The position numbers and the translations under genes are program-made. From positions 160,001-224,000 of the forward strand of contig CAWHTE010000007.1 of the NCBI GenBank assembly GCA_963832165.1: a stretch of DNA of 64,000 bases, written 5' to 3'. The notes below the pieces were generated by a model. It ran no database searches and had not been told where the DNA came from. It saw nothing but the letters and a program-made list of their open reading frames with translations. The stretch's first letter is position 1, and the number at the start of each line of letters is the position of its first letter. This document shows positions 6,411-59,897 of this stretch, in pieces. Source of the stretch: an uncultured delta proteobacterium. GTDB taxonomy: Bacteria > Myxococcota_A > UBA9160 > SMWR01.

Positions 6411-8713
6411 TCAGGCCTCGGCCTGCACTTCTTCCGGCTCGCTCGCGCTGCCCGGAATCGGCGGCGCCTGGCGCACCGCTTCGCGCGCCTCGCAGGCGTG
6501 CGCGGCTTCGATGAACAGCTGCGCCTCCTCGACGCGCTGCGACGCGAGCTCCGCCGTCACGCGTTCGGGAGGGCTCGCGTGGCGGTCGAGCAGATAGCGG
6601 CCGAACAGGCCCTTCGCGAAGCGGTCGAAGAAGCGCTCGCTGTCGAAGAAGCGCGTCTTCCACTCGGCGACGATGTCGTCGGGATTCTGCGTGACGTCGA
6701 TGTATTCCATGCGCACGAGCGCGCGCGCCGCCGAGAGCATCGCCGCGTAGGCGAGCTCTTCCGCGGTCTCGGGGTCGCCTTCGTCGAGCGCGATCTGCGC
6801 GTCGAACGCCTGCGCCTCCGCCTTCACCACCTCGATGCCGAACAGCGACACCACCTCGCCCGCGCACTCGCCCACGCCGAGGTCGCCGATCGTGAACTCG
6901 CGCACGTCGCTCCAGTCGCTGTAGAACGACGGGTCCTCGGCGTAGGGCGCCACGGGCATGAACGGCTTGATCAGCTCCTTCAGGTTGCGCTTGCCCATGC
7001 GCGCGCACCACGCCTGGAAGCGCTCGCCATTCTCGCGACCGTGGGCGTAGGCGTCCGTGAGTGCGTCGACCGCCTCCGGGATGGCCTTGCTCGGCACCGC
7101 GCCGACGGCGAGCCCGTAGCTGCCCGCGTTCTCGGTCCACTGCCCGCCCAGGATCACCTGGAAGTGCGGCACCGTGCGCCCGTCGATCTTGCGGCTGTTG
7201 CCGTAGAAGCCGATGTCGGCGACGTGGTGCTGGCCGCAGCAGTTGAAGCAGCCCGAGATCTTGATCTTGAGGCTCTTCACCGCCTCGGGCAGCGACACCG
7301 ACTTCGCGGCGAGCCGATTGCGCAGCTCTGCGCCGAGCCCGCGGCTCGACGAGATGCCGAGCTTGCAGGTGTCGGTGCCCGGGCAGCTCGTCACGTCGAC
7401 GATCGTGGTGGCGCCAGGAGCGGCGAGGCCGAGCGCGGCGAGGTCGCGGTGCACGTCCGGGAGATCGGCGTCGGAGACCCAGCGCAGCACGATGTTCTGC
7501 TCGACGGTGGTGCGCAGGTTCTCGCCCACGTACTGGCGCGCGAGATCGGAGAGGCCGCGCGTCTGATCGGCGGTCAGGTCGCCGAGCGGCAGGTTCAGCA
7601 TCACCACCGAGTAGCCACTCTGGCGCTGCGGGCTCACGTTGGTGGCGAGCCACTCCTCGTAGCCCTCGACGAGCCCCTGCTTTGCGACGACGCCGCCGGC
7701 AGGGCGCGGCGCCTCGCCGCGCGTGTGCGGCATGTCGTTCAGATAGGCGGTCCAGCGGTCGTCGTGGGGCAGCGTCTTGCGCTCCTCCACGACGAGCCGG
7801 CGGAACTCCTCGATGCCGAGCTTCGCGACCAGGAACTTGATGCGCGCGCGGCCGCGGTTCTGCTTCTCGCCGAGCCGCGCGAACACGCGCGCGATCGCCT
7901 GGGTCACCGGAAGCAGCTCCTCCTCGGGCGTGAACTCCGAGAGCACCTTCGCCTGGTGCGGAACGGCGCCCAGCCCGCCGCCGACGACGACCTCGAAGCC
8001 GCGCTTGCCGTCGACGACGCGCGCGACGTAGCCGGAGTCGTGCATCTGCACGAGACCGCACGCCTCGTGCTCGCAGCCCGAGAACGCGAGCTTGAACTTG
8101 CGCCCGAAGTCCTGCACGTCGGGATGTCCGAGCAGGAAGCTCATGAGCGCCTGCGCGTAGGGCGACACGTCGAACGGCTCGGTCTTGCACACGCCCGCGA
8201 GCGGGCACGCCGTGACGTTGCGCACCGAGTTGCCGCACGCCTCGCGCGTCGTGATCCCGACCGCGGCGAGCCGGCGCATCAGATCGGGCGTGTCCTCGAT
8301 GTGCACGAAGTGGAGCTGGACGTCCTGGCGCGTGGTGACGTGGAGGATCCCGTCCGAGTACTCCTCCGCGAGCGCCGCGAGCACGTCGAGCTGCTCGGGC
8401 GAGACGCCGCCGAAGGGGATCTTGATCCGCTGCATGCCCGGCGCGTCCCAGAGCGTGTCGGGGCCCTTCGTGGGCTTCGTCGTCGAACGCGAGCTGCGCG
8501 CTCTGCGATGCCGTCGTGGCGCTGGCCGTTGTCGTAGCGCTGCCCGTACACGCCGCGTCGCAGGCGCGTCTCGGCGAACACCTTCTCGTCGATCTTCCCC
8601 TTCTTGCGCAGCTGAAGCTGCGCCTCGAACTGATCGATCTCCTCGGCCCAGCCGGGATTCATGCGATCCGCGAGCGTGTCCTTCCAAGACTCCGGGGTAC
8701 GGGTGTCAGCCAT
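6411..8713 (-). CDS. Ferredoxin-type nitrite/sulfite reductase (siroheme, 4Fe-4S) with C-terminal extension; frameshifted near 8480-8505
   Basis: N-terminus in ORF 8279..8719 (FAETRLRRGVYGQR); remainder in ORF 6411..8687 (HVTTRQDVQLH, ACGNSVRNV, RKFKLAFSGC, SCPGTDTCKLG, KISGCFNCCGQHH). GGGAG RBS favours ATG 8713. The cysK/rhodanese context favours sulfite as substrate. Confidence 0.88.
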
Positions 8714-8852
8714 GGCCATCTCCCGAGTCGACCGCGGGCGGCGGGGGGTCGAGATCGGTGTTGGAGGATTCCCCGCCTAGCAACGGGGACGGGTCGTCGC
8801 CTTGCAGTCTACGCGAATGCGGGCTCGTGCGCGGCGACTCGCCTTGGTCTCG

Positions 8853-8881
8853 ATACTAGTCCGCAGGCGGAAATCGATCAA
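8853..8881 (-). promoter_or_regulatory. Sigma-70-type promoter of the sulfur operon
   Basis: Minus strand TTGATC (8881-8876), 17 nt, TAGTAT (8858-8853). Confidence 0.6.
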
Positions 8882-8882
8882 C

Positions 8883-9007
8883 AAATCCCGACTATATAAA
8901 TAGGATAATATCGAATCCTTAAGAGGCTTAAATCACAACGAAATAGGAGATTTCATCCCGAGGATCCCACGGAAATCTCCATTTAATACTGCGTAATAAT
9001 GGGGATT
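8883..9007. promoter_or_regulatory. AT-rich regulatory region with inverted repeats
   Basis: Most AT-rich tract in the window. AAATAGGAGATTTC (8941-8954) vs GAAATCTCCATTT (8972-8984); AATCTCCATT (8974-8983) vs AATGGGGATT (8998-9007). Confidence 0.5.
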
Positions 9008-9554
9008 ATGAGCGGCTTCGCGCCGCGACCAGAAGCCGCAGCCGGTCGAGCATCGAGATCGCCGTGCTCGCGACGAGCCCCCAGCCGAGCCAGAGCACTA
9101 GCGATGGAGAGGGCCAACCCAACCCGAGCGCGTCGCGCACGATCGGGATCGCGGCGATCACGTAGTACGCGATGCCGTTCCAGCGCCCGAGCCGACTCGG
9201 GAACAGACCCGATGCGGAGAGAACGCGCGAGTCGAGCGAGTACTGGATGAACGCCGCGGCGATCAGCCACGGCAAAGGCGTCGGCAGGACACCCATGCGC
9301 GCGAGCGCGGCGGTGCCCGTGACGACGAACGTGGCGTCGGCGGCGTGATCCGCAAAGCCGCCGAATCGGCTCTCCTCACCGTAGCGGCGCGCCACCCAGC
9401 CGTCGGCGAGATCGGTTCCGACGGCGGTGAAGAACAGCGCCGCGGCGATGCCGGGCGCGTCCGACAGCACCGCGACCGCGAATGCCGGCGCGAGCAGAAG
9501 TCGCAGCAGCGTGAGCGCGTTGGCCCGCGTCGACCAGGAGGCAGCGGCATCCAT
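9006..9554 (-). CDS. CDP-alcohol phosphatidyltransferase family protein
   Basis: ANALTLLR...TDLADGWVARRYGEESRFGGFADHAAD (D-x2-DG-x2-AR-x8-G-x3-D-x3-D signature). Start uncertain (9554 or 9569). Confidence 0.88.
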   Translation of the reverse strand: MDAAASWSTRANALTLLRLLLAPAFAVAVLSDAPGIAAALFFTAVGTDLADGWVARRYGEESRFGGFADHAADATFVVTGTAALARMGVLPTPLPWLIAAAFIQYSLDSRVLSASGLFPSRLGRWNGIAYYVIAAIPIVRDALGLGWPSPSLVLWLGWGLVASTAISMLDRLRLLVAARSRS

Positions 9555-45437: not shown

Positions 45438-46040
45438 GTGCACAAGCTGGTGGGATTGCTTTCGGATCGCGGCGACGATCCGAAGCTCGACGTTCCGCAC
45501 CAGTGGCTGCGCGCCGACGCAACGGACGCGATCCTCGCTTCGCTCGCACAGAGACCCGCGCGCGCCGAACGGCACGCCGGCCTCGTGTTGGCCTGGCCGC
45601 GCGATGCGGCGCAGGGCACCGAGGCCGAGGCGACGCTCGGCCCCCACACGTCGGCGCTCTACCGCGTGCGAGAGGTGCTGCATTGGGACGAGCTCGGTCC
45701 CGGCGCCGACGCCGTGGTGCTGACCTATCTCGTGCGGCGCCGCGCGGACCTCTCGTTCGCGGCCTTCGAACAGCACTACCGGGAACGGCATGCGCCACTC
45801 GCGCGCGTCCACCACCCCGGGATCGCGCGCTACGTGCAGAACTACGTCGAGCCGCGCGCCGGCGAGCCGGCCGAGTTCGACGCGATCTCGGAGCTGTGGT
45901 TCCGCAGCGAGGAAGAGGCGCGCACGCGCTTCTACCGGGACGACGACAGCCGCCGCGTGATCACCGAGGACGTGCATCGCTTCATCGACCTGCGCGCAGG
46001 CAGTGCGTTCGCGGTGCGGCCGGGTCTCCCACCCGGTTAG
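45438..46040 (+). CDS. EthD domain-containing protein
   Basis: RRRADLSFAAFEQHYRERHAPLA...RYVQNYV...FDAISELWF...EDVHRFID. Start GTG 45438 inferred. Confidence 0.75.
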   Translation: MHKLVGLLSDRGDDPKLDVPHQWLRADATDAILASLAQRPARAERHAGLVLAWPRDAAQGTEAEATLGPHTSALYRVREVLHWDELGPGADAVVLTYLVRRRADLSFAAFEQHYRERHAPLARVHHPGIARYVQNYVEPRAGEPAEFDAISELWFRSEEEARTRFYRDDDSRRVITEDVHRFIDLRAGSAFAVRPGLPPG

Positions 46041-46049
46041 AATGCCCGC

Positions 46050-46442
46050 GTGTCCCGCACCGCCTCTCGACGCTGGCTCTGGCTCGTCGCGCTCGCGACG
46101 ATGCCCGTGCCGTTCTACCTCGGCGAGGTGGAATGGGCCCCCGTGCTCCGGCTCGCGTTCCTGTGGTCGCTGCTCTCGCTCGTGCTGGTGGCCGAGGGCG
46201 GCCACACGCTGATCAGGATGTGCGCGCTCGGCTTCGTGCAGGCGGCGCTCTACATCGGCCTCTTCTACCTCGGCGCGGCTCTCGCGGCGCGGGCGGTCGA
46301 GCGGATCGCGGAGCCACCGCTGCGCGCGGCCGCGGTCGGCACCGCAGTGTTCCTGCTCGTCGTTTCGGCATGTCTGCCGATCTACCAGACGCCGCTCTCG
46401 AGCACGCGCCTCCACTCCGACCTCTGGCACCTGTTCGAGTGA
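46050..46442 (+). CDS. Small membrane protein of unknown function
   Basis: 130 aa with about 4 hydrophobic segments; stop overlaps the GTG of the DUF3604 gene. Confidence 0.65.
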   Translation: MSRTASRRWLWLVALATMPVPFYLGEVEWAPVLRLAFLWSLLSLVLVAEGGHTLIRMCALGFVQAALYIGLFYLGAALAARAVERIAEPPLRAAAVGTAVFLLVVSACLPIYQTPLSSTRLHSDLWHLFE

Positions 46443-48337
46443 GTCGGCGCGGCATCGTTCTCGGTCTCGCGGCGTTCGTGTTGCTCGCGCCGGCTACCGC
46501 AGCGACGGTCGAGCGCACCGAGCAGCGCGAGCCGTGTGCGGCGCGCGACGCGCTGCGCAGGCCGTACTTCGGCGATCTGCACGTGCACACGCGTTATTCG
46601 CTCGACGCGAGCACCCAGGGCACGCGCACACGGCCGAGCGAGGCCTACGCCTTCGCGCGCGGCGAGCCGCTCGGGCTGCACCCGTTCTCGGATCGCGGCG
46701 AGCCCGGCCGCACGGTGAAGCTCGCGCGCCCGCTCGACTTCGCCGCCGTCACGGATCACGCCGAGCTGTTCGGCGAGGTGAGCGTCTGCAATTCACCCGG
46801 GTCACCCGGCTTCGACTCGACGGTGTGCGTGATCTACCGCGGTTGGCCGCGGCTCGCGTTCTTCTTCATGAACGCGCGCGGCGCGCCGCGCTTCGGCTTC
46901 TGTGGCGAGGGCGGCCGCGACTGCATCGCCGCGGGGCAGGGCCCCTGGCGCGAGATGCAGGAGGCGGCCGAGGCCGCCTACGACCGCAGCTCCGCGTGCC
47001 GCTTCACGACCTTCGTGGGCTACGAGTGGACCAAGAGCGTGCAGTCGGCCAGCAACCTGCACCGCAACGTGATCTTCCGGAACGCCGCGGTGCCCGAGAT
47101 GCCCGCGAGCGCGGTCGATGCGCTGACGCCCGAGGACCTCTGGGACGCGCTCGACCGCGATTGCCGTGCTTCTCGGCCGGACTGCGATGCCGTGGTGATC
47201 CCGCACAACTCCAATCTCTCGGGCGGCTTCATGTTCGCACCCGTCGAGCTGCGCAGCGGCGAGCCGTTCACGCCGGAGTACGCCGCGCGGCGGGCCGACA
47301 ACGAGCGCCTCGTGGAGGTGGTGCAGCACAAGGGCGACTCGGAGTGCCGGATCGGCGCGGGCACGAGCGACGAGCTCTGCACCTCGGAGCTCCTGCCCTA
47401 CGACACGTTCATGGGTCGCTTCCTGCCGCTCGCGCGGAACGAGTCGCCCGCGCCGAGCAATTTCACGCGCACGGCGCTCGGCGCAGGCCTCGTGTACCAG
47501 GAACAGCTCGGCGCCAACCCGTTCCGCTTCGGATTGATCGGCAGCACGGATACCCACCTCGGAGCCGCGGGGCTCGTCGAGGAACGCGGCTATCCCGGCC
47601 ACGGCGGCGCGGGCATTCCGATCGGCGAGCAGCTGCCCGACGCGCTGCTCGATCCGATCGAGTACAACCCGGGCGGGCTCGCGGGCATCTGGGCCGAAGA
47701 GAATTCGCGCGACGCGCTGTTCGAGGCGCTGCGGCGCCGCGAGACGTTCGCGACCTCGGGCCCGCGCATCGTGTTCCGTCTGTTCGCGGGCTGGAACCTC
47801 GAATCGGATCTGTGCGGAGCCGACTTCGCGAAGCGCGCCGACGCAGCCGGAGTGCCGATGGGCGGTGAGCTCGGCGCGGCTCCTTCTCCGAGCGCGGCGC
47901 CCGTCGTCGCCGCGTGGGCGCTCCAGGATCCCGGAACCGCGGAACTGCCCGGCGTTCCGCTGCAGCGCCTCCAGATCATCAAGCTCTGGGTCGAAGACGG
48001 CACCGCGCACGAAGCCGTCATCGACGTGGCGGGTGACGCCGCCAGCCGCGCGAGCGTGGATCCGGAGAGCTGCGAGACGAACGGACCTGGATTCCCGCAG
48101 CTCTGCGCAGTGTGGCGCGACCCCGACTTCGACCCGCGCACTCCCGCGCTCTACTACGCGCGCGCCGTGCAGAACCCCACGTGCCGCTGGAGCGCATTCG
48201 CCTGCAACGCGGCGGGCGTGCGCTGTGAGGACTCGAGCACGATCCGCGTGGGCTTCGAAGCGTGCTGCGACGAGGCCTACCCGAAGACCGTGCAGGAGCG
48301 CGCCTGGACCTCGCCGGTCTGGTACACGCCGAAGTAG
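46439..48337 (+). CDS. DUF3604 family secreted protein (PHP-like metal-binding motifs)
   Basis: Signal peptide; FGDLHVHT, LDFAAVTDHAE, LHRNVIF, IPHNSN, QHKGDSEC, GSTDTH, WAEENSRDALF, QERAWTSPVWY. Confidence 0.88.
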   Translation: MSRRGIVLGLAAFVLLAPATAATVERTEQREPCAARDALRRPYFGDLHVHTRYSLDASTQGTRTRPSEAYAFARGEPLGLHPFSDRGEPGRTVKLARPLDFAAVTDHAELFGEVSVCNSPGSPGFDSTVCVIYRGWPRLAFFFMNARGAPRFGFCGEGGRDCIAAGQGPWREMQEAAEAAYDRSSACRFTTFVGYEWTKSVQSASNLHRNVIFRNAAVPEMPASAVDALTPEDLWDALDRDCRASRPDCDAVVIPHNSNLSGGFMFAPVELRSGEPFTPEYAARRADNERLVEVVQHKGDSECRIGAGTSDELCTSELLPYDTFMGRFLPLARNESPAPSNFTRTALGAGLVYQEQLGANPFRFGLIGSTDTHLGAAGLVEERGYPGHGGAGIPIGEQLPDALLDPIEYNPGGLAGIWAEENSRDALFEALRRRETFATSGPRIVFRLFAGWNLESDLCGADFAKRADAAGVPMGGELGAAPSPSAAPVVAAWALQDPGTAELPGVPLQRLQIIKLWVEDGTAHEAVIDVAGDAASRASVDPESCETNGPGFPQLCAVWRDPDFDPRTPALYYARAVQNPTCRWSAFACNAAGVRCEDSSTIRVGFEACCDEAYPKTVQERAWTSPVWYTPK

Positions 48338-49148: not shown

Positions 49149-52100
49149 CTACGGCGCGTTCACGAAGGCGATCGCGCCGAGCGCGTTCTGCTTGCCGGCC
49201 CCGTAGTTGGAAGTGCCGACGAGTTGCACGTAGCGCTGTAGCGCTAGGCCGTTCACGCGCTGGCCCGCGTTGCTGACCGTTCCCCGGGCCAAGGTGCCCG
49301 TTGCGACGGTGACCGGGCTCACGAGCGCCTGTCCACCTGCGGCGAGCGTATTGCTCGTGCGGATCTCGTAGCCGCGGATCTCGGGGTCGGTCTGCTGCCC
49401 GTTGTAGTGCCACATCACGATCGCGTCGGCGACGCCCGGCGCGCCCAGGTCGAAGATCAGATTGGCCAGCGCGGTGCCACTATTCGTCGAGACGAAGCTC
49501 TTGGCCTGCTTGCCCGTGTGCAGCGAGCTCTGGATCGTGGTCGGGTTCACCACGACGCCCGTCAGCGCGAGCAGGTTGCCGATGCACTTCGAGGTGATCG
49601 AGGTGTAGTTCGTGCCGCACGGATTGCCGCGCCCGAACACGACCTGGGCCTGCGCATTGACGACGACGTCCCCTTGCCACCGGGTCGGATCGTTCGGGAA
49701 CGCGTCCGAATTGTCCCCGTGGCCGTCGCCGTCGCTGTCGGCCCACTCGGTGGGATCGTTCGGGAAGGCGTCCTGCGGATCGGGAACGCCATCGCCATCG
49801 GTATCGGGGGGCGGCGGTGGCGGTTGAACGTCGCCGGGGTTCAGCTCGCGCAGGAACGCAGCGAGCGCGGCCCGCTCGGCGGTGGTCGTGGTCACGTGAG
49901 CCGCGATCGCCGCATCGAGCGTCGCCGCGGAGCCGTCGTGGAGATACGGTGCGGCGCCCCAGCTGCCGAGCAGGGGCGGCGTGTCGAAGCCGTCGAGCGC
50001 CGAACCGAGCCGGCTACCGCTGCCGGCATGGATCGTTCCGACATTGTGTCGGGTGTTGAGCGCGCTGTCCGTGAACGACGCACCGGAGTGGCAGCTGCCG
50101 CAGGCCTTGATGGCAAAGGTCGCGCGGCCCTGCTCCGCCTGCGCCGAGAACGCGCCGTTTCGGAACGGGCTCGCGGGCGCCGTGTTCAGCGAGGCGACGT
50201 AGGCCGCGAGCGCGTCGAGATCGGCGCTGATGCCGGCCTTCGGATCGCCCAGCGGCGACGAGCGCGTGCCCGTGTTGAAGTCCGTGTTGCTCATGAGGCC
50301 GGTGCCGGCCGAGAGACCGCGGATCTGCCCCTCGAAGTCCTGCACCTCGTCGAAGTTGCCAGTCCAGTGCAGCGGGCCGTTGCCCATGCCGGCCTTGCCG
50401 CGCAACTCGATCGTATTGCGCAGGCCCTCACCGAATCCGGTGAGGTCCCACACGCGTCCGTCCTGGCCGCCGTCGTTGTGGCACGACGCGCACGAGATGT
50501 AGTTGTCGCGCGCGAGCCTGTCGTCGGCGGCGTCGTAGAACAGCTTCTTGCCCTGGAGCACGTTGGGCGCGAGCAGCTCGTTCGCGACGGTCGCGACGCT
50601 GCCGAGAGCGGTTGCCTGCGTCGAGCCCAGCGCGACCATGTTCGTGACGTCGAAGCGCGTGACGGTGCGATCCATGAAGTTGTGCACGTACAGCGTGCGG
50701 CCGTTGCTCGAGAACGCGACGCCCTGGGGCGCGCGGCCGACGGGAATCCGCGCGAGCTGGAAGCCCTGCTGCGTGTCGTAGACCGCCACTTCCTTGCTGG
50801 TCTCGAGCGCGACGAAGAGATACCGGCCGTCGCCCGTGATCGCCGCGCCGGTCGCGAGCCCCGCGTTGTCGTGATCGATCCGCTGTCCGGTGAGCTCCGT
50901 TCGCGAGGGCAGATCGACGACGGACGTCACCGCGCGCACGGTCTGGTCGAAGATCATTCCCACACGGCCGCGATAGGCGCCGCCCTCGACATTGTCCTGC
51001 TTCGACGGCACGTAGGCCTTCGAGCCGAAGAGGACTGGCGCGTTCAGGTAGTTCGCGATGCCCGGACCCGAGACCTCGGCGGGCGCGCGGCTCGAGTAGC
51101 CGAACGTGACCGTCTGCGAGAGCGTCATCGCGCCCGTCGCCACCACGAACAGCTGTCCGCCGCCGCCGCTCACGTTGACCACGTTCGTGTCCTCGCCGGG
51201 CAGCCGCGGCGTGACGAAGTTGGTGACGTAGAGCGTCTGGCCGTCGGCGCTCACGGCGAGATGGCGCGGCTTGCCGGAGAGCGCGGCACTGGCCGAGAGC
51301 GCTCCCGTGGAACGCGTGCGCTTGTCCACGCGCCCGAGCGCCTCGAGCGCGACGTAGAACGTGTCGCTTCCGGATGCGAACGAGATGCCGTGCGGCTGCG
51401 AAGCCACGGGCAGCGTGACCGTTCGCACGACCGCGAGCGTCTGCGTGCTGATCACCGAGATCGTCGCCGATCCCTTGTTCGCGACGAACACCTCGTTCGC
51501 GAGCGGCGCCTTGGCGAGCGACCAGGGCCGATCACCGACGCCGATCTCGGCCACCACCGCGCCCGCGGCGCTCATCACGGTGACCGTGCGCGCGTCGGGA
51601 TTCACGCTCCAGACCCGGTCGGCGCCGCTGCTGCCCTCCACGATCAGCGTCGTCGAATTGAACGGAGACGGCACCGACGCGACGCCGTGCTCGACCAGCC
51701 ACTTGCCCGGATCGCTCGGGAACACGTCAGAGTTGTCGCCGTGGCCGTCGCCGTCCGTGTCGGCCCACTCCGTGGGATCATTCGGGAACGCGTCGGTGGA
51801 GTCTGGAACACCGTCGCCGTCGGTATCGAGGTCGGGCGGCGGCGGGGCCGAGAACACGAGCCGCATCCAGTCGAGGCGGGTGCCCGCCTCGCGGTGGATC
51901 ACCTCGACCGTGTGAGTTCCGGCGCTGAGCGCCACGAGTACGGGATCGGCGCCGCCCAGGTCGCTCACGAAATCGGTCTGATAGGTGGTGTTGACCGGTG
52001 CCTCCCAGTCGAAGCCACTGCCGGGCTGGTCATCCACGGTGATCCAGAACGAGTTCTGCGAGGTGCTCGGCGCGTAGACGGCGCCCTCGAGCCTGTACTG

Positions 52101-54477
52101 GCCGGACTGGCTCACGTTGAAGGTGAGCACGGCCCGACTCGGGCTGGTGGGCCCACTCGTCACGGCGGTGCCGCTCGGAACCGAGATGTAGCGGCCGTTG
52201 CGCGCAGCGGCGTCGAGGCCGACCGTGAACGAGCCCGCGAGCACCGCGCTCTCGGCCTCCACGTCGAGACCATTGCCCGTGCTGCCGTCGTTGCGCAGCA
52301 CCTGGAAGGTCTGGCCGATCGACGGCACGCCCGCGCTGTCGACGGCGAAGATCCAGTAGTAGCCCGGCAGCAGCACGTTCGGGTTCGGCTCGAGCTGCAG
52401 CGCGTAGGAGCCGTCGCCGTTGCTCGTGAACGCGATCGGCAGGTAGCGCTGATCCGTGTTCATCGCGTGCGTGGTCGCCGAGAGCCGCACCATGCTGAAC
52501 TTCGCGATCGTTCCCGTCGCGAACACCGTGATCGAAGAGCCCGCGTCGCCGATCGCGGGTGCCGCCGTGATCGCGGGCCGCGGGGCCAGGCTGCCGTCCG
52601 CTGAGTAGAGGTAGGGCGGCGAGAAGATCTGTCCGTCGAGATGGTTCGCCGCACAGCCGTTGCCGCACGCGCCGCCACCCGCCGACAGCACGCGGCCATC
52701 CTTGAGCAGGATCGCCGTCGAGTGGTAGGTGCGGGCCACGGCCATGTTCGCGAGCGTGCGCCACTGGTTCGTGGTGGGGTTCCAGGCCTCGGCGGTCAGG
52801 ACGGAGCCCGCGTCGTCGAACTGCGCGCCGGTGTTGTTGCCGCCGATCACGAGCACGTCGCCGGTCGGCAGCGTCACCGAGTTGTGGAACGCGCGCGCAC
52901 TCGCCATCGGCGCCGCCGCCGTGATCACGGGGGTCGGGCCGTTGAGGTCGACGCGGTACACCGCGCTCGTGGTCGGCGGGTTCTGGGTGCGGTCCGAGCC
53001 GCCCACGAGCAGCACCTTGCCTTTGTCGTACGTAACCGCGTTGCCCCACATCCGCGTACGCGTGCCGACGGGCTGACCCAGCGACTGCACGCTGCCCGAG
53101 TTGCGCGGATCGAAGATGTGCCAGGTCTGGGTCGGCCCGCCGTGAAACACGCGCCCGTCCGGCGCGACCGCCATCTGGCCCCACCACTCGAGACCCCCAG
53201 CACCGTTCGCGGCCGATTGGCCGTTCTCGGAGTTCTGCTCGTTGAGCAGGTCCTGCATCGTCGCGCCGGTCGTCGCGGTCCAGCTGTTGTTCGCGGCGCT
53301 GTAGCGCTCGGAGGTATTGCCGGCTCCGTTCGCGAAGGTCGCGAACAGCTCGTTGCTCGGGCAGCGCGAGCACGGTGCTGTACCAGCGGTTCTGTGCCAT
53401 TCCCGCGAGCGCAGACCACGCGAGCGTCGCCGGGTTGAACGTGCTCGTGCGCGTGTCGAACGGATTGCCGCCGGCCGCAACGACCCGACCGTCCTCGAGC
53501 GTGGAGACACCCGCGCAGAACATGTCGTGGAAGTTGCTGTTGGTGGTCTGGAACGTCCCGGCGCTCGGATCGAACAGCGAGGAGTAGGTGAACTCCCGAT
53601 TGCTCGGGAACGCGTTCGTCTCGGTCGACGACCACGAGAGCACGCGCCCGTCGGGCAGGTTGGCCGCGCTGATCGCGATGTGCGGCCACGCGATCACGGA
53701 GCCCCAGGATCCGAGCGTCGACGTGGGGGGCGGCGGGGGCGGGGGCGGCGGCGCTCCTCCCGAGACGGCGGTGTTCATGTCGTTCTGGATCTCGGACTGC
53801 GAGAGCGCGCGGTTGTAGATCCGCAGATCGTCGATTCGTCCCGGGAAGAACTCATCGCTGTAGGTGTTGCCCCCGATGCGGAGCGGGTTGCTATTGACCT
53901 CGAGGCTGCCAGTGCGGCTCTGGCTGCCCACCTGGGTTCCGTTCAGGTACAGGCGCAGCGACGCTCCGTCGTAGGTGCCGGCCATGTGGGTCCACTCGTT
54001 CAAGGGCAGCGCGTTCGGTCCTTGCGCGGTGGTGCAACAGTTCCCAGCGAACGTCCCACCGACTCCCACCTTGTTGTCGCTCGTGTTGGCGTTCAGGTAA
54101 TAGGCATCTACTTCCTTCTGCAGGATCACCTTCCAGTCCGACATCGCCGACGTCGGATACACCCAGGCCTCGATCGTCATGCCCGTCGTCAGATCGAGCG
54201 AGCTCGAATCCGGGATCAGCACGACGTCGTTCGTGCCGTCGAAACTCAGCGCCGGGCCGTAGCGGCCCGACGGCGTCCGGATCGCGCCGCTGATCGAGCC
54301 GTGATTTCCCAACCCCGAGGCGTCGGCGACGGTGGGCCCGCTCGCTTCGTCGAACGCGTACGCAGCGACGAGGCCCGACTGGGCCGACGCCGTGCCCGCG
54401 GTGGCGGCCAGGAATCCCGCGATCCCGAGCGTCAGCATCCCCGTGCGAACGACGCGCTCGTCGACCATCTTGCGCAT
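49149..54477 (-). CDS. Large secreted multidomain protein (~1775 aa): LamG + galactose-oxidase-type copper-radical oxidase + CBM-like + TSP3 + beta-propeller + di-heme cytochrome c peroxidase-like; one frameshift near 53360
   Basis: Joins ORF 52030..54477 (signal peptide, LamG, HDMFCAG, RWYST) to ORF 49149..53510 (RTYHSTAILL, ATTHAMNTDQR, CASCH, CGSCH, APYLHDGS) by deleting one G from ggg 53359-53361, giving ...VLALPSNELFATF... Confidence 0.82.
49677..49806 (-). repeat. Thrombospondin type-3-like Ca-binding repeats (copy 2)
   Basis: DTDGDGVPDPQDAFPNDPTEWADSDGDGHGDNSDAFPNDPTRW. Confidence 0.8.
51699..51828 (-). repeat. Thrombospondin type-3-like Ca-binding repeats (copy 1)
   Basis: DTDGDGVPDSTDAFPNDPTEWADTDGDGHGDNSDVFPSDPGKW. 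Confidence 0.8.
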
Positions 54478-56286: not shown

Positions 56287-57507
56287 ATGAAGCCGCTCGA
56301 GGGATGCCGCGTCGTGGATGCGAGCCGCATCGTCTCGGGTCCCGTGTGCGGATGGCTGCTCGCGTCGCTGGGCGCCGAGGTGATCCGCGTCGAGCCTCCG
56401 GGCGGCGACGTGACCTGGCAGGTGCCGCCCTGGATCGGACCCTCGGGCGTGCACCGAGAAGGGCGCGGCGAGCGCGACCTCGCCCTATCGCCCCTGCGGC
56501 GCCAGCGCGGCAAGCGCAGCGTGGTGCTCGACCTCAAGAACGCGGCGGGCCTCGACGTGTTCCGTCGGCTGCTGCTCGCGAGCGACGTGCTGATCGAGAA
56601 CTTCGTGCCGGGCGCGCTCGCCCGGCTCGGACTCGACGATGCAGAGCTCGAGCGACTCCACCCGCGCCTCGTGCACTGCAGCATCACGGGCTACGGCCAC
56701 GACGGCCCGTACGCGAACCGCTCGAGCCTCGACCTCGTCGTGCAGGCGATGTCGGGACTCCTGGCGAAGACCGGCTTCCCGGACGGACCGCCCACCAAGG
56801 TGGGTGCGACGGTCGGCGATCAGGTGCCCGCGATCTACGCGGCGCTCGGCATCGTCGCCGCACTGCGCCAGCGCGACCGCGACGGCCGCGGCCAGAAAGT
56901 GGACGTCGCGATGCTCGACGCGCTCGTGAGCCTGCTCTGGGACGAGCCGCTCGACGAATACGAGCGACAGGGCGTGCCCGAGCGCGTCGGCAATGGCGAC
57001 CCGCGCGGTGCTCCGCTCGACGTGTTCCGCACGTCGGACGGCTGGGCGGCCGTGGTGGTGACGAGTCAGCGACAGTGGGAGCAGATCTGCGAGGTGATCG
57101 GCCGACCCGAGCTCGCGCATCGCTATGCGACGCTCGCCGATCGCGCCCGTGAAGGCCGAGCGGTCAACGACGCGGTGGCGCAGTGGTGCGCGCGCCACTC
57201 CACCGACGAAGTCGTGACGCGCTTTCTCGCGATCGAAGTGCCCGTGGGTCCCGTGCGCGGAGCATTCAGCGCGCGCGAGGATCCGCAGGTCCGACACCGC
57301 GGTGCGTTGGTGCCGCTGCTCCACCCCGATCGCGCGGAGCCGACCGGCTATCTCGGCGCCGCGTTTCCGGTGCGGCTCTCGCGCGCCGACACGAGCACGC
57401 CGCCCGCCGACCCGCTCGGCGCAAGCACGGCGGCCGTGCTGGCCGACGTGCTCGACCTCTCCGAGAGCGAGATCGCCGCGCTGCGGGCCGCGGGCGCGCT
57501 GGGTTAG
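56287..57507 (+). CDS. CoA-transferase family III (CaiB/BaiF)
   Basis: PLEGCRVVD, LGAEVIRVEPPGGD, GKRSVVLDLK, DVLIENFVPG, SITGYG, VGDQVPA. Confidence 0.9.
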   Translation: MKPLEGCRVVDASRIVSGPVCGWLLASLGAEVIRVEPPGGDVTWQVPPWIGPSGVHREGRGERDLALSPLRRQRGKRSVVLDLKNAAGLDVFRRLLLASDVLIENFVPGALARLGLDDAELERLHPRLVHCSITGYGHDGPYANRSSLDLVVQAMSGLLAKTGFPDGPPTKVGATVGDQVPAIYAALGIVAALRQRDRDGRGQKVDVAMLDALVSLLWDEPLDEYERQGVPERVGNGDPRGAPLDVFRTSDGWAAVVVTSQRQWEQICEVIGRPELAHRYATLADRAREGRAVNDAVAQWCARHSTDEVVTRFLAIEVPVGPVRGAFSAREDPQVRHRGALVPLLHPDRAEPTGYLGAAFPVRLSRADTSTPPADPLGASTAAVLADVLDLSESEIAALRAAGALG

Positions 57508-59897
57508 CGAGGCGCGCGTCGACGCGCGAGTGCGGCGAGCACGGCGGCGCCGCTCGCGAGCAGCGCGAGCGACGACGGCTCGGGAAGCGGCTCGTACCAG
57601 ATCGGCGAGGCCCACGCGCGCTCCTCCACGGTATCGAAGGGCGTGACGGGCGATGCGCCTGCGAAGCCGAGCGAGTCTGCATTGCGCTCGATCGCGCAGC
57701 AGCCCTCATAGCCGCGCCAGTGCGACCACTCCCCCGAGAACACGCCGTTGCCGTCTAGCTTCGAGCAGTCGACCGGAGCGCCCGGCGCGCGCACGTGACA
57801 CTGCCAGGCGGTGTAGCGGCAGGTCGGGATCTCGAACGCGCGCGCGTAGTAGTAGGCGTCCTGGCTCGGATCGAATTCCGGGTCGCGCCAGAGCGCGCAC
57901 AGCCGCTCGGGATGCGTGGCCACGTTCACCGAGCAGTCCCCGTTCGGCTTGGTGACGGGTGCGCTCGTCGACGACACGTCAAAGGTCTTGGTCTTGAGCT
58001 CACCGTTCTCGACCCAGCCCTTCACGATGTCAGTGCGCTGGAGCGGGACCGCCTGCGCGCGGCCGAACGCCGGATCGTCGAGCGGATCCTGGCGCGCCCA
58101 CACGATCAGCGCGGGCGCCCGCTCCGGATCGGCATGCGGCGGGAGCACGCCGCCCATCGCGACACCTTCGAGTGCGCCCGAGTCGAGCGGGCTGCGTCCC
58201 TGATCGAGCGCATTGCACCAACCCTGGATCTGCTGCGACTCGAGGTCGTCCCAGGTCGCGAGCGCGCGGATCTCCATCCGCGTGCCCGAAGTCCCGAACG
58301 CCTCGCGGCGCTTCATCGCCGAGAACAGCGCGTCGCGCGTGTTCTCCTCGGCCCACAGCCCCGCGAGCCCGCCCGGGTTGAGCGGCCGGCTCCAATCGAG
58401 GAACTCGCGATCCTGGCAGTTCGTGTTTGCGTTCGGATCGCCCGGAGAAAGCGGATCGGCCTCGTTCGAGCAGCTCCAGAAGCCGAGCTGTTTCTTCGCC
58501 TCGTTGTCGAGCAGCCCTCCGTGTCCCTCGAACACCGCTTCCTGGGTGTTGCCGGCGGTTCCATTGTGATTGTCGCTCGAGCCGATGAAGCCGCCCTGAT
58601 ACGGATTGACGCCGACCACCGAGCGCATGCGGAGCCCGGCGATGTAGGAGTTGCGGACCATGTCCCACGGCGTCGTGCAGTCCTCGGGAGTGCTCGCGCC
58701 ATCGGGGGCCGCGGCGTCACAGCGCACATTGTCGGAGCTGCCCATCGTGAGATTCCGACACCAGGGCGCGTCGCTCGCGGGATTCGGCGGTGTCGAACAC
58801 CAGGCCGCGCATTGGGCCGGCAGCGTGCCGCCGTTCTTCGCGCGCGACTGCGGACCGCACACGTGCTTGTACTGTTCGAAGCCGCACGAAGTCTCCTCGC
58901 CCTCGAGAAAGTCGTTCAGGCCGGCTGCGCACTCCGACTGGCCCTTGTGCTGCGAGATCTCGACGAGCCGGTCCATGTCGTGGCGCGTCAGCGCGTCCTG
59001 TGGAGTCAGCGGAAGCGCGTCGCGCGCGATCGGCAGCCCCGTCAGCGGATCGGGCGGCAGGAACATCCGGCCGTCGGACAGATTGGGATTGTGTGGGATC
59101 GTGAGCACCTCACAGCCGGCGACGCCGATGCACTCGTTCTTCAGGTGATCGAAAAGCTTCCACTCGTCGTTCACGTTGGGATCGCCCTCGACCAGGTAGC
59201 CGCCGAAGTTCGTCGAGGGGAACACGTCGGCGGGACGCACGGTCCCGTTGAAGATCACGTTGCGGTGAAGCATCTGGCCGTTCTTGTTCGAGCTGAACTC
59301 GTAGCCGTCGAAGGTCGTGAACGAGCAGGGCTCGTTCTCCTCATCGTTCATCAGCTGGATGTCCTGCCAGGCGGTCCGACGGATCAGCTGCTGCTGCTCG
59401 AGCGTGCCGAGTACGATTGCCGTGGTCGGCGGAGTGTTGCCGCGCGCAAGCTCGCGGATGTTGTCGCGTGTGTTCTGCCCGAGCAGCTCGCAGACCGGAT
59501 TCGCTCCGGGGGGCAGCAGCCCGCCGGGACCGCCCTCGCAGACGTAGATCCAGCCGCCCAGGAACTCGGCGTGATCGGTCACGGCGGCGAAGTCGAGCGG
59601 GCGGTCGATCCGGACCGTGTGATCGCAGGTGTGGGGATCGCTGCTGTTGCCTCCGGCCGGCACCATGCACGCGGGCTCGCCCTTCGCGAAGCGCACCGCA
59701 TCGCGCGGGCTGTTGTTCGAGTTGAAGAAATAGGTGTCCAGCGAGTAGTTCGTGTGGATGTGGAGATCGCCGAAGAACGCCTGCTTCTTGCCGGACTCGC
59801 TTCCGAGGCACGACGGCGCGCCGAGCGCGGCCGAGGGCGACAGCGCCGCGAACAAGACCAGTGCGATGGTTGCGGGCAGAGCTCTCTTCGGGGGCAT
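57504..59897 (-). CDS. DUF3604 family protein with C-terminal PEP-CTERM sorting signal
   Basis: Signal peptide; FGDLHIHT, DFAAVTDHAE, LHRNVIF, IPHNPN, GSSDNH, EERAWASPIWY; tail LPEPSSLALLASGAAVLAALARRRAPR. Confidence 0.88.
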   Translation of the reverse strand: MPPKRALPATIALVLFAALSPSAALGAPSCLGSESGKKQAFFGDLHIHTNYSLDTYFFNSNNSPRDAVRFAKGEPACMVPAGGNSSDPHTCDHTVRIDRPLDFAAVTDHAEFLGGWIYVCEGGPGGLLPPGANPVCELLGQNTRDNIRELARGNTPPTTAIVLGTLEQQQLIRRTAWQDIQLMNDEENEPCSFTTFDGYEFSSNKNGQMLHRNVIFNGTVRPADVFPSTNFGGYLVEGDPNVNDEWKLFDHLKNECIGVAGCEVLTIPHNPNLSDGRMFLPPDPLTGLPIARDALPLTPQDALTRHDMDRLVEISQHKGQSECAAGLNDFLEGEETSCGFEQYKHVCGPQSRAKNGGTLPAQCAAWCSTPPNPASDAPWCRNLTMGSSDNVRCDAAAPDGASTPEDCTTPWDMVRNSYIAGLRMRSVVGVNPYQGGFIGSSDNHNGTAGNTQEAVFEGHGGLLDNEAKKQLGFWSCSNEADPLSPGDPNANTNCQDREFLDWSRPLNPGGLAGLWAEENTRDALFSAMKRREAFGTSGTRMEIRALATWDDLESQQIQGWCNALDQGRSPLDSGALEGVAMGGVLPPHADPERAPALIVWARQDPLDDPAFGRAQAVPLQRTDIVKGWVENGELKTKTFDVSSTSAPVTKPNGDCSVNVATHPERLCALWRDPEFDPSQDAYYYARAFEIPTCRYTAWQCHVRAPGAPVDCSKLDGNGVFSGEWSHWRGYEGCCAIERNADSLGFAGASPVTPFDTVEERAWASPIWYEPLPEPSSLALLASGAAVLAALARRRAPR

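Follow-up and report, generated by a model that had tools for sequence, protein, structure and literature searches.

In industry, copper radical oxidases serve as biocatalysts, as a rule requiring a supply of horseradish peroxidase and catalase, and their activation is described as incompletely understood in section 2.3 of PMC11611005. Activation by a separate haem peroxidase, which a preliminary description of the DNA studied here took as established, has precedent in fungi and in Streptomyces (PMC9770985, PMC11611005, PMC4736821). In the Colletotrichum tandem, an AlcOx copper radical oxidase is paired with a haem peroxidase that is reported to oxidise its partner directly (PMC9770985), and in the GlxA-DtpA-Sco system of Streptomyces, a copper radical oxidase is accompanied by a haem peroxidase and a copper chaperone, both DtpA and Sco being reported as needed for GlxA maturation (PMC4736821). 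These partners are separate proteins. Here we analyse a 64,000-nucleotide stretch from an uncultured delta proteobacterium (the window; positions 160,001 to 224,000 of contig CAWHTE010000007.1, assembly GCA_963832165.1), whose minus strand carries at 49149-54477 a gene that joins a copper radical oxidase domain to a c-type di-haem unit in the same chain, the haem unit being unrelated to the peroxidase families of those pairs. Such a fusion is undescribed in the full-text literature that we searched, a collection outside which most subscription journals and supplements fall.

The fused chain and its family

Once one extra G is removed, as the preliminary description proposed, an upstream frame of 373 residues (54477-53359) and a downstream frame of 1402 residues (53357-49152), stop-free up to its stop codon at 49149, give one chain of 1775 residues. 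The split had been expected to hide the architecture from annotation, but the downstream frame alone corresponds to a 1369-residue database protein (P0003) with oxidase and CCP_MauG families. Because this uninterrupted frame holds the propeller, the two haem motifs and the greater part of the oxidase, the fusion is independent of the frame break. Pfam returned LamG (5e-37), the galactose-oxidase E-set (1e-20), Kelch and CCP_MauG (9e-9) above their cut-offs, as had been anticipated, with a YNCE propeller slightly below its own. Of the flanking modules named earlier, LamG was recovered, the TSP3-like repeats fell below cut-off and the CBM-like module found no backing, Pfam and PDB sequence searches with the accessory and C-terminal domains having given no meaningful match; carbohydrate binding by the accessory domain of about 145 residues is only a guess. 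The fused chain is likely secreted, to judge from its sequence.

The architecture recurs in many bacteria. A family search with residues 1-1180 gave 2162 matches at E<=1e-20 among 8000 candidates, and when the genome's own two copies were removed, a single chain combined the haem domain and propeller with the two parts of the oxidase in 111 of the 118 best homologues. In a genome scan, 65 of the best 80 of at least 598 loci were fully fused, with the whole oxidase in frame; 10 had an in-frame portion of the oxidase, 4 were cut by a contig end and 1 was split. The single-chain architecture is thus found in intact homologues, as predicted, and these homologues and locus frames reject the alternative that the oxidase and the haem unit are encoded by different genes. 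A search with the haem domain only yielded 1110 representatives at 1e-30, and among the best 150 the oxidase is carried by 93; where the upstream sequence is 900 residues or longer (97 representatives), 87 carry it. Record titles place carriers in Myxococcota, Verrucomicrobiota, Pseudomonadota, Acidobacteriota, Chloroflexota and others, and cultured carriers are Variovorax robiniae, Methylibium sp. Root1272, Marinobacter salicampi, Rivibacter subsaxonicus and Thalassotalea euphylliae. The distribution among relatives is patchy (8 of 41 genomes match, this one counted), and the window copy is an ordinary member of a large family. In Variovorax robiniae, two sets of matches to oxidase, propeller and haem domain stand in tandem, with a SCO gene after them (L096:36-11194).

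Every active-site and haem motif listed in the preliminary description lies where it was placed, and all five galactose-oxidase active-site residues are present. In a family alignment of 360 proteins, in which denominators here and below count the proteins aligned at that column, these residues are near-invariant (Cys 181/182, Tyr 179/179, Tyr 192/192, His 192/192, His 205/205). The in-frame paralogue from the same genome aligns with galactose oxidases over 470 residues (E 1e-95 for 9g8h/9g43 and 3e-78 for 1gof), identity to AA5_2 galactose oxidases being about 36%, and the Kelch and E-set fold, modelled in a 75%-identical homologue, matches 2wq8 (Z 52.8, root-mean-square deviation 2.0, 465 aligned). 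The five residues and this fold mark the domain as an AA5 copper radical oxidase, for which copper binding, the cross-link and O2-dependent alcohol oxidation are predicted. The two pieces of the split frame score 37 and 115 bits against the GlxA family NF052501, whose curated cut-off is 800. The domain shares fold, active-site residues and the Phe194 and Phe464 equivalents with AA5_2 enzymes (9g43/9g8h from Pseudarthrobacter, 1gof from Fusarium, 5c86/5c92). Unlike them, it does not retain Trp290, Arg330 or Gln406, by alignments and column counts, carries a Trp immediately before the cross-linked Tyr (170 of 179 proteins) and has a fused haem unit. Arg330 and Gln406 are reported to limit substrate access in galactose oxidase (PMC11611005); neither is kept, and therefore the substrate is probably something other than galactose. 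The genome also encodes a stand-alone copper radical oxidase homologue (L003:6399-8549, G000:C11) with motifs FCS, RWYP, RTYHN and TTH.

A di-haem unit with a probable propeller cap

The propeller and di-haem domain form one rigid unit, since the spacer between them is fixed across the family, the predicted structure of the window's own 624-residue unit has a predicted template modelling score (pTM) of 0.94, and a propeller loop near 50934-50957 forms strong covarying pairs with the haem domain. The propeller matches hydrazine synthase beta (5c2v_B) with Z 36.5 and root-mean-square deviation 2.0 over 303 aligned residues, tied with the archaeal YVTN propeller 1l0q. In structural searches on the haem region, propellers took up both hit lists, the haem domain having been folded together with the propeller.

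The haem domain had been described as bCcP/MauG-like. Membership of the superfamily (PF03150) stands, with two CxxCH motifs and a Pfam score of 36.6 against a cut-off of 25.6 bits, but the closer likeness does not: the Tyr ligand of MauG and the Met ligand of bCcP are both missing, and the nearest relatives are hydrazine synthase beta-gamma proteins. Ranked by the family profile, the di-haem PDB entries run from hydrazine synthase gamma (2.7e-23) through bCcP (2.3e-21) to MauG (1e-6), and the best haem match in NCBIfam is a hydrazine synthase beta-gamma fusion (1e-13). His1154 (P0002 numbering) aligns gap-free both to the bCcP Met ligand (3o5c, 1nml) and to a His of hydrazine synthase gamma; this second-haem position holds His in 340 of 349 proteins, in place of the Met of classical bCcP, and the Tyr of MauG is not present at the same column, which is equated with MauG Tyr294 through the match to the bCcP Met.

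With hydrazine synthase beta/gamma (5c2v; fused in Scalindua) the unit shares a seven-bladed propeller joined to a di-haem domain and the His at the second haem, and in these respects it is beta-gamma-like. It differs from gamma proper in that the third haem-binding Cys and Asp168 have no counterpart, in scoring 37-50 bits against cut-offs of 625-1250, in keeping the bridging Trp of peroxidases (355 of 357) where gamma has His or Arg, and in having an oxidase as partner. With bCcPs (1eb7, 1nml, 3o5c) it has in common the two CxxCH motifs, the Ca-site Asn/Thr/Pro, the bridging Trp and a PYxHxG motif, but it departs from them in its His ligand, its propeller cap and a Gln/Pro/Glu pocket that did not align. 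MauG, BthA and MbnH belong to the same superfamily (TIGR03791, E 2e-11, far under cut-off), and MauG has the bridging Trp, but the window unit is without their Tyr ligand. The haem unit is a hybrid that combines a peroxidase-type Trp bridge with a hydrazine-synthase-type cap and ligation; judged on sequence, it is neither a MauG nor a classical peroxidase. The genome holds another beta-gamma-like family, a tandem pair of proteins of about 1000 residues (L004:3362-6385 and 6544-9498, G000:C5) with a propeller and a distant di-haem domain (CxxCH, HWRGD, GFLHDG) and no oxidase in the chain.

Proposed self-activation and its alternatives

Our best reading, which we hold with somewhat less than even confidence, is that the protein may be secreted and act as an oxidase tethered to its own peroxidase, by which it would be reactivated; self-activation as such is plausible at the level of a prediction. 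The secreted chain would bind a surface through its accessory domains, and the oxidase would convert a surface alcohol or aldehyde with O2, producing H2O2. Haem 1, presumably five-coordinate, would bind this peroxide under the propeller cap and react with it to form a one-haem Compound-I-like oxidant rather than the bis-Fe(IV) state of MauG. The tethered lobes would dock transiently, allowing the haem oxidant to restore the Cys-Tyr radical, and the haem unit would drain excess peroxide. The bis-Fe(IV) state is reported to require a Tyr ligand and is not expected here because that ligand is absent; in BthA, the Y463H variant is reported to lose bis-Fe(IV) and to keep peroxide reduction (PMC6405878). 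In favour of this reading are the near-invariant copper ligands, the retained bridging Trp and the strong coupling of oxidase and haem domain among family representatives and loci. Sequence distances within one half of the chain also track those within the other (r 0.65, shuffles <=0.06), a result that kinship alone can yield. A strong built-in oxidant would help, because Trp290 is absent and the W290H variant of galactose oxidase is reported to need an 892 mV oxidant, compared with 424 mV for wild type (PMC11611005, section 2.3). Glu1004 and Asp1007 of the acidic motif, each present in 357 of 357 proteins, could supply an acid-base group. The Y294H variant of MauG reportedly forms a Compound-I-like species.

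Several observations weigh against self-activation. The Gln/Pro/Glu pocket, which is reported as needed for peroxide binding (PMC6405878), is replaced by Asp or Phe, Gln and a gap against 1eb7 and 9qdt, in what is a loose alignment. The Trp beside the cross-linked Tyr may substitute for Trp290, by analogy with GlxA, in which Trp288 precedes the cross-linked Tyr (PMC11611005). No oxidase-to-module pair appears among the top 80 covarying pairs, where propeller-to-haem pairs do (241 sequences, about 195 effective). The AlphaFold model of a compact homologue (P0020 core, 1151 residues, 53-residue spacer; predicted local distance difference score 89.8, pTM 0.80, from 87 sequences) hints that the two lobes pack in a defined arrangement, its pTM being above expectation for freely moving lobes, but the corresponding spacer is about 200 residues in the window protein and ranges from 44 to 1521 residues across 181 proteins, with a median of 299. 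In one protein, P0255, the order is reversed, with the propeller-haem unit first and the oxidase about 1000 residues later. Lobes that dock transiently while flexibly tethered, or a mediator that can diffuse, would fit best. Two further difficulties are that the closest solved di-haem relative, hydrazine synthase gamma, is reductive, and that the oxidase is absent in 10 of the 97 long representatives, of which three (P0287, P0309, P0363) may be N-terminally incomplete; 7 of the 10 carry an LVIVD-type propeller, Big_5 and PKD instead, and two related genomes carry such non-oxidase LVIVD-type forms.

Because LVIVD and other oxidase-free forms exist, the haem unit has a use without a fused copper oxidase, and this is the main support for a different account, in which the unit would be a working peroxidase or peroxygenase on an outside polymer or small molecule, with the oxidase as a swappable peroxide supply and activation as a side effect. 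A midpoint-rooted tree of 105 modules, drawn after representatives with incomplete or unclassifiable modules were omitted, groups 8 LVIVD forms and one partnerless protein at support 0.994. Stand-alone propeller-cytochrome clusters of 600 residues also exist; short database proteins with the haem unit alone, most of them on short contigs or labelled partial, were not counted. In further support, homologues have PA14, NPCBM, ricin, discoidin and malectin domains occupying their variable spacer, the haem unit is better conserved than the oxidase among the closest homologues (about 88-91% against 72-80%), and glyoxal oxidase feeding lignin peroxidases offers an analogy. However, the LVIVD forms would nest among oxidase fusions if the midpoint root is right, and they come without an identified peroxide source, an atlas search of the LVIVD domain having named LVIVD repeats only, and the propeller cap, as placed by covariation, would restrict polymer access. 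We regard this account as rather unlikely, though a serious contender. The LVIVD architecture was found at L010:1162-4893 and L011:1-4026 and in P0319, P0320, P0322, P0340, P0347, P0355, P0308 and P0357. Several of its LVIVD-type propellers have His/Asp-rich motifs, and the architecture may represent an unrecognised metalloenzyme.

The kinship with hydrazine synthase suggests that the unit could instead work in the reductive direction, which we think improbable. A low-potential bis-His haem would take electrons from a partner cytochrome, and haem 1 would reduce H2O2 or an N-O compound, thereby protecting or feeding the oxidase rather than oxidising it. Among di-haem PDB entries the best match is hydrazine synthase gamma, which has a CxxCH..G..WDL stretch in common with the haem domain, and the best NCBIfam match is to a beta-gamma fusion; gamma is reported to contain a bis-His haem, its haems lying at about 0 and -310 to -330 mV (PMC12607021). 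A small cytochrome-like gene, with no Pfam hit, stands beside 11 of 80 loci. On the other hand, the third Cys and Asp168 of gamma are missing and the bridging Trp is kept, and PEP-CTERM-like tails (12 of 119 proteins) suggest a surface site far from respiratory electron donors.

Copper-related neighbours bear on a possible maturation role, in which the haem unit would act a single time, in the manner of MauG or MbnH, to form the Cys-Tyr link or load copper. SCO, YtkA, MbnP and MbnH-like genes together adjoin 39 of 80 loci, many of them short (representatives of the neighbour families were scanned against Pfam), SCO proteins standing beside 11 and 10 of the 80, and the dependence of GlxA on DtpA and Sco is a parallel. 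We nevertheless hold this role to be very unlikely. The Tyr ligand that bis-Fe(IV) requires is missing, a second di-haem gene that could serve adjoins 18 of 80 loci (YtkA- or MbnP-linked in the members scanned), and in galactose oxidase the Cys-Tyr cross-link forms by self-processing.

It is a speculative and doubtful extension that there is a widespread, unstudied class of self-sufficient bacterial redox enzymes in which a beta-gamma-like haem unit docks onto a copper radical oxidase and fires its Cys-Tyr radical via a Trp relay. If so, a copper radical oxidase that activates itself would have been met in nature for the first time, many non-anammox hydrazine synthase relatives would gain their first assigned function, and the anammox enzyme would share ancestry with a peroxide-using module. 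Hydrazine synthase beta-gamma homologues are reported to be highly prevalent in environmental bacteria (PMC12758564); the word 'galactose' is absent from the main text of that paper, and its supplements may list such fusions. The fusion offers a handle on these beta-gamma-like relatives, and a natural one-chain version makes the activation question directly testable through its haem unit.

The frame break, gene layout and neighbouring genes

The 5.5 Mb genome, in 11 contigs, contains a second copy of the fusion on contig C3 (G000:C3:33721-39055; L001:7719-13056). This paralogue, 88% identical in DNA, ends in a PEP-CTERM-like tail; it is without the extra base at 53359-61 and open across the site, but near C3:36643 an additional base breaks its own frame. 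The base at 53359 is likewise missing from one contig in each of the soil runs X1 and X2, which are low-depth and from relatives rather than this strain. Because the paralogue and both soil contigs lack it, the extra G is probably an assembly error. Among the runs searched we found no reads of this strain, the best run holding 9% of words, and no RNA run was listed.

That the window copy is a real pseudogene would be a statement about this copy rather than the family, independent of the mechanism, and we judge it unlikely, if worth keeping in mind. It gains from both genome copies carrying a +1 break and from the search having found no reads of this strain; in a same-genus genome, 181 frames include 77 with a clear orthologue here, of which 3 are split by a frame change, a background at which we estimate two chance breaks at about 4-5%. 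Against it, the two copies are broken at different positions, in both cases by a single added base within a short run, the frames are stop-free with all catalytic residues intact, other genes show comparable splits, and the same-genus homologue of the fusion is an open frame of 2098 codons. Of 751 codons compared between the paralogues, 63 carry synonymous and 67 non-synonymous differences, a pattern suggestive of purifying selection in the past but silent on recent loss. An exosortase match at G000:C3:208608-209364 likewise falls in two frames, probably through a further frameshift of the assembly. The features of the window copy are collected in Table 1.

Table 1. Features of the fused oxidase and di-haem gene, in window coordinates
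Feature	Position	Strand	Basis or remark
Whole gene	49149..54477	-	1775 codons in two frames (373 + 1402)
Likely signal peptide	54379..54477	-	Basic start, hydrophobic stretch, ASA|Q; called by eye from sequence
LamG / concanavalin-like domain (PF13385)	53785..54240	-	Pfam E 4.7e-37
AA5 oxidase propeller, part 1	53359..53721	-	In-frame paralogue aligned to galactose oxidase
HDMFC motif (Cys of Cys-Tyr cofactor)	53515-53529	-	AA5 propeller part 1
RWYS motif (Trp-Tyr; cross-linked Tyr)	53377-53388	-	AA5 propeller part 1
GGG run, frame break	53359..53361	+	One base more than paralogue and related contigs
AA5 oxidase propeller, part 2	52602..53357	-	Holds RTYHS motif
RTYHS motif (Tyr495/His496 equivalents)	52719-52733	-	AA5 propeller part 2
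Galactose-oxidase E-set domain (PF09118)	52299..52580	-	Pfam E 1e-20
TTHAMNTDQR motif (His581 equivalent)	52446-52475	-	Within E-set domain
Accessory domain, about 145 residues	51843..52283	-	Up to three repeats in some homologues
DxDxDG acidic repeats, TSP3-like	51690..51842	-	Pfam E 1e-4, below cut-off
Seven-bladed YVTN-type beta-propeller, hydrazine-synthase-beta-like	50568..51689	-	Profile, covariation, structure match
Di-haem domain	49833..50567	-	Pfam, alignments, motifs
CASCH (first CxxCH)	50478-50492	-	Di-haem domain
LHWTG motif	50358-50372	-	Di-haem domain
Bridging Trp	50364-50366	-	Di-haem domain
Acidic motif NFDEVQDFE	50331-50357	-	Di-haem domain
CGSCH (second CxxCH)	50088-50102	-	Di-haem domain
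PYLHDGS motif	49929-49949	-	Di-haem domain
His1154, predicted sixth ligand of haem 2	49896..49898	-	Alignments; P0002 numbering
Second DxDxDG repeat set	49674..49817	-	Pfam E 1e-3, below cut-off
C-terminal domain, 173 residues, no known family	49152..49670	-	PEP-CTERM-like tail here in paralogue

Upstream of the C3 paralogue stand a YtkA gene and a pair of di-haem CCP_MauG genes, likely a copper-delivery cassette. The four scanned neighbours of the window copy encode an enoyl-CoA hydratase, a carboxyl transferase and two DUF3604 proteins, the latter at 46037-48337 (plus strand) and 57504-59897 (minus strand), the second with a PEP-CTERM-like tail. The genome encodes cytochrome c assembly and exosortase genes. 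The LamG module is common to this genome's surface redox proteins; L002:5292-8183 (G000:C1) combines a closely similar LamG with a glucose/sorbosone dehydrogenase-like domain, PKD, Fn3 and a PEP-CTERM-like tail.

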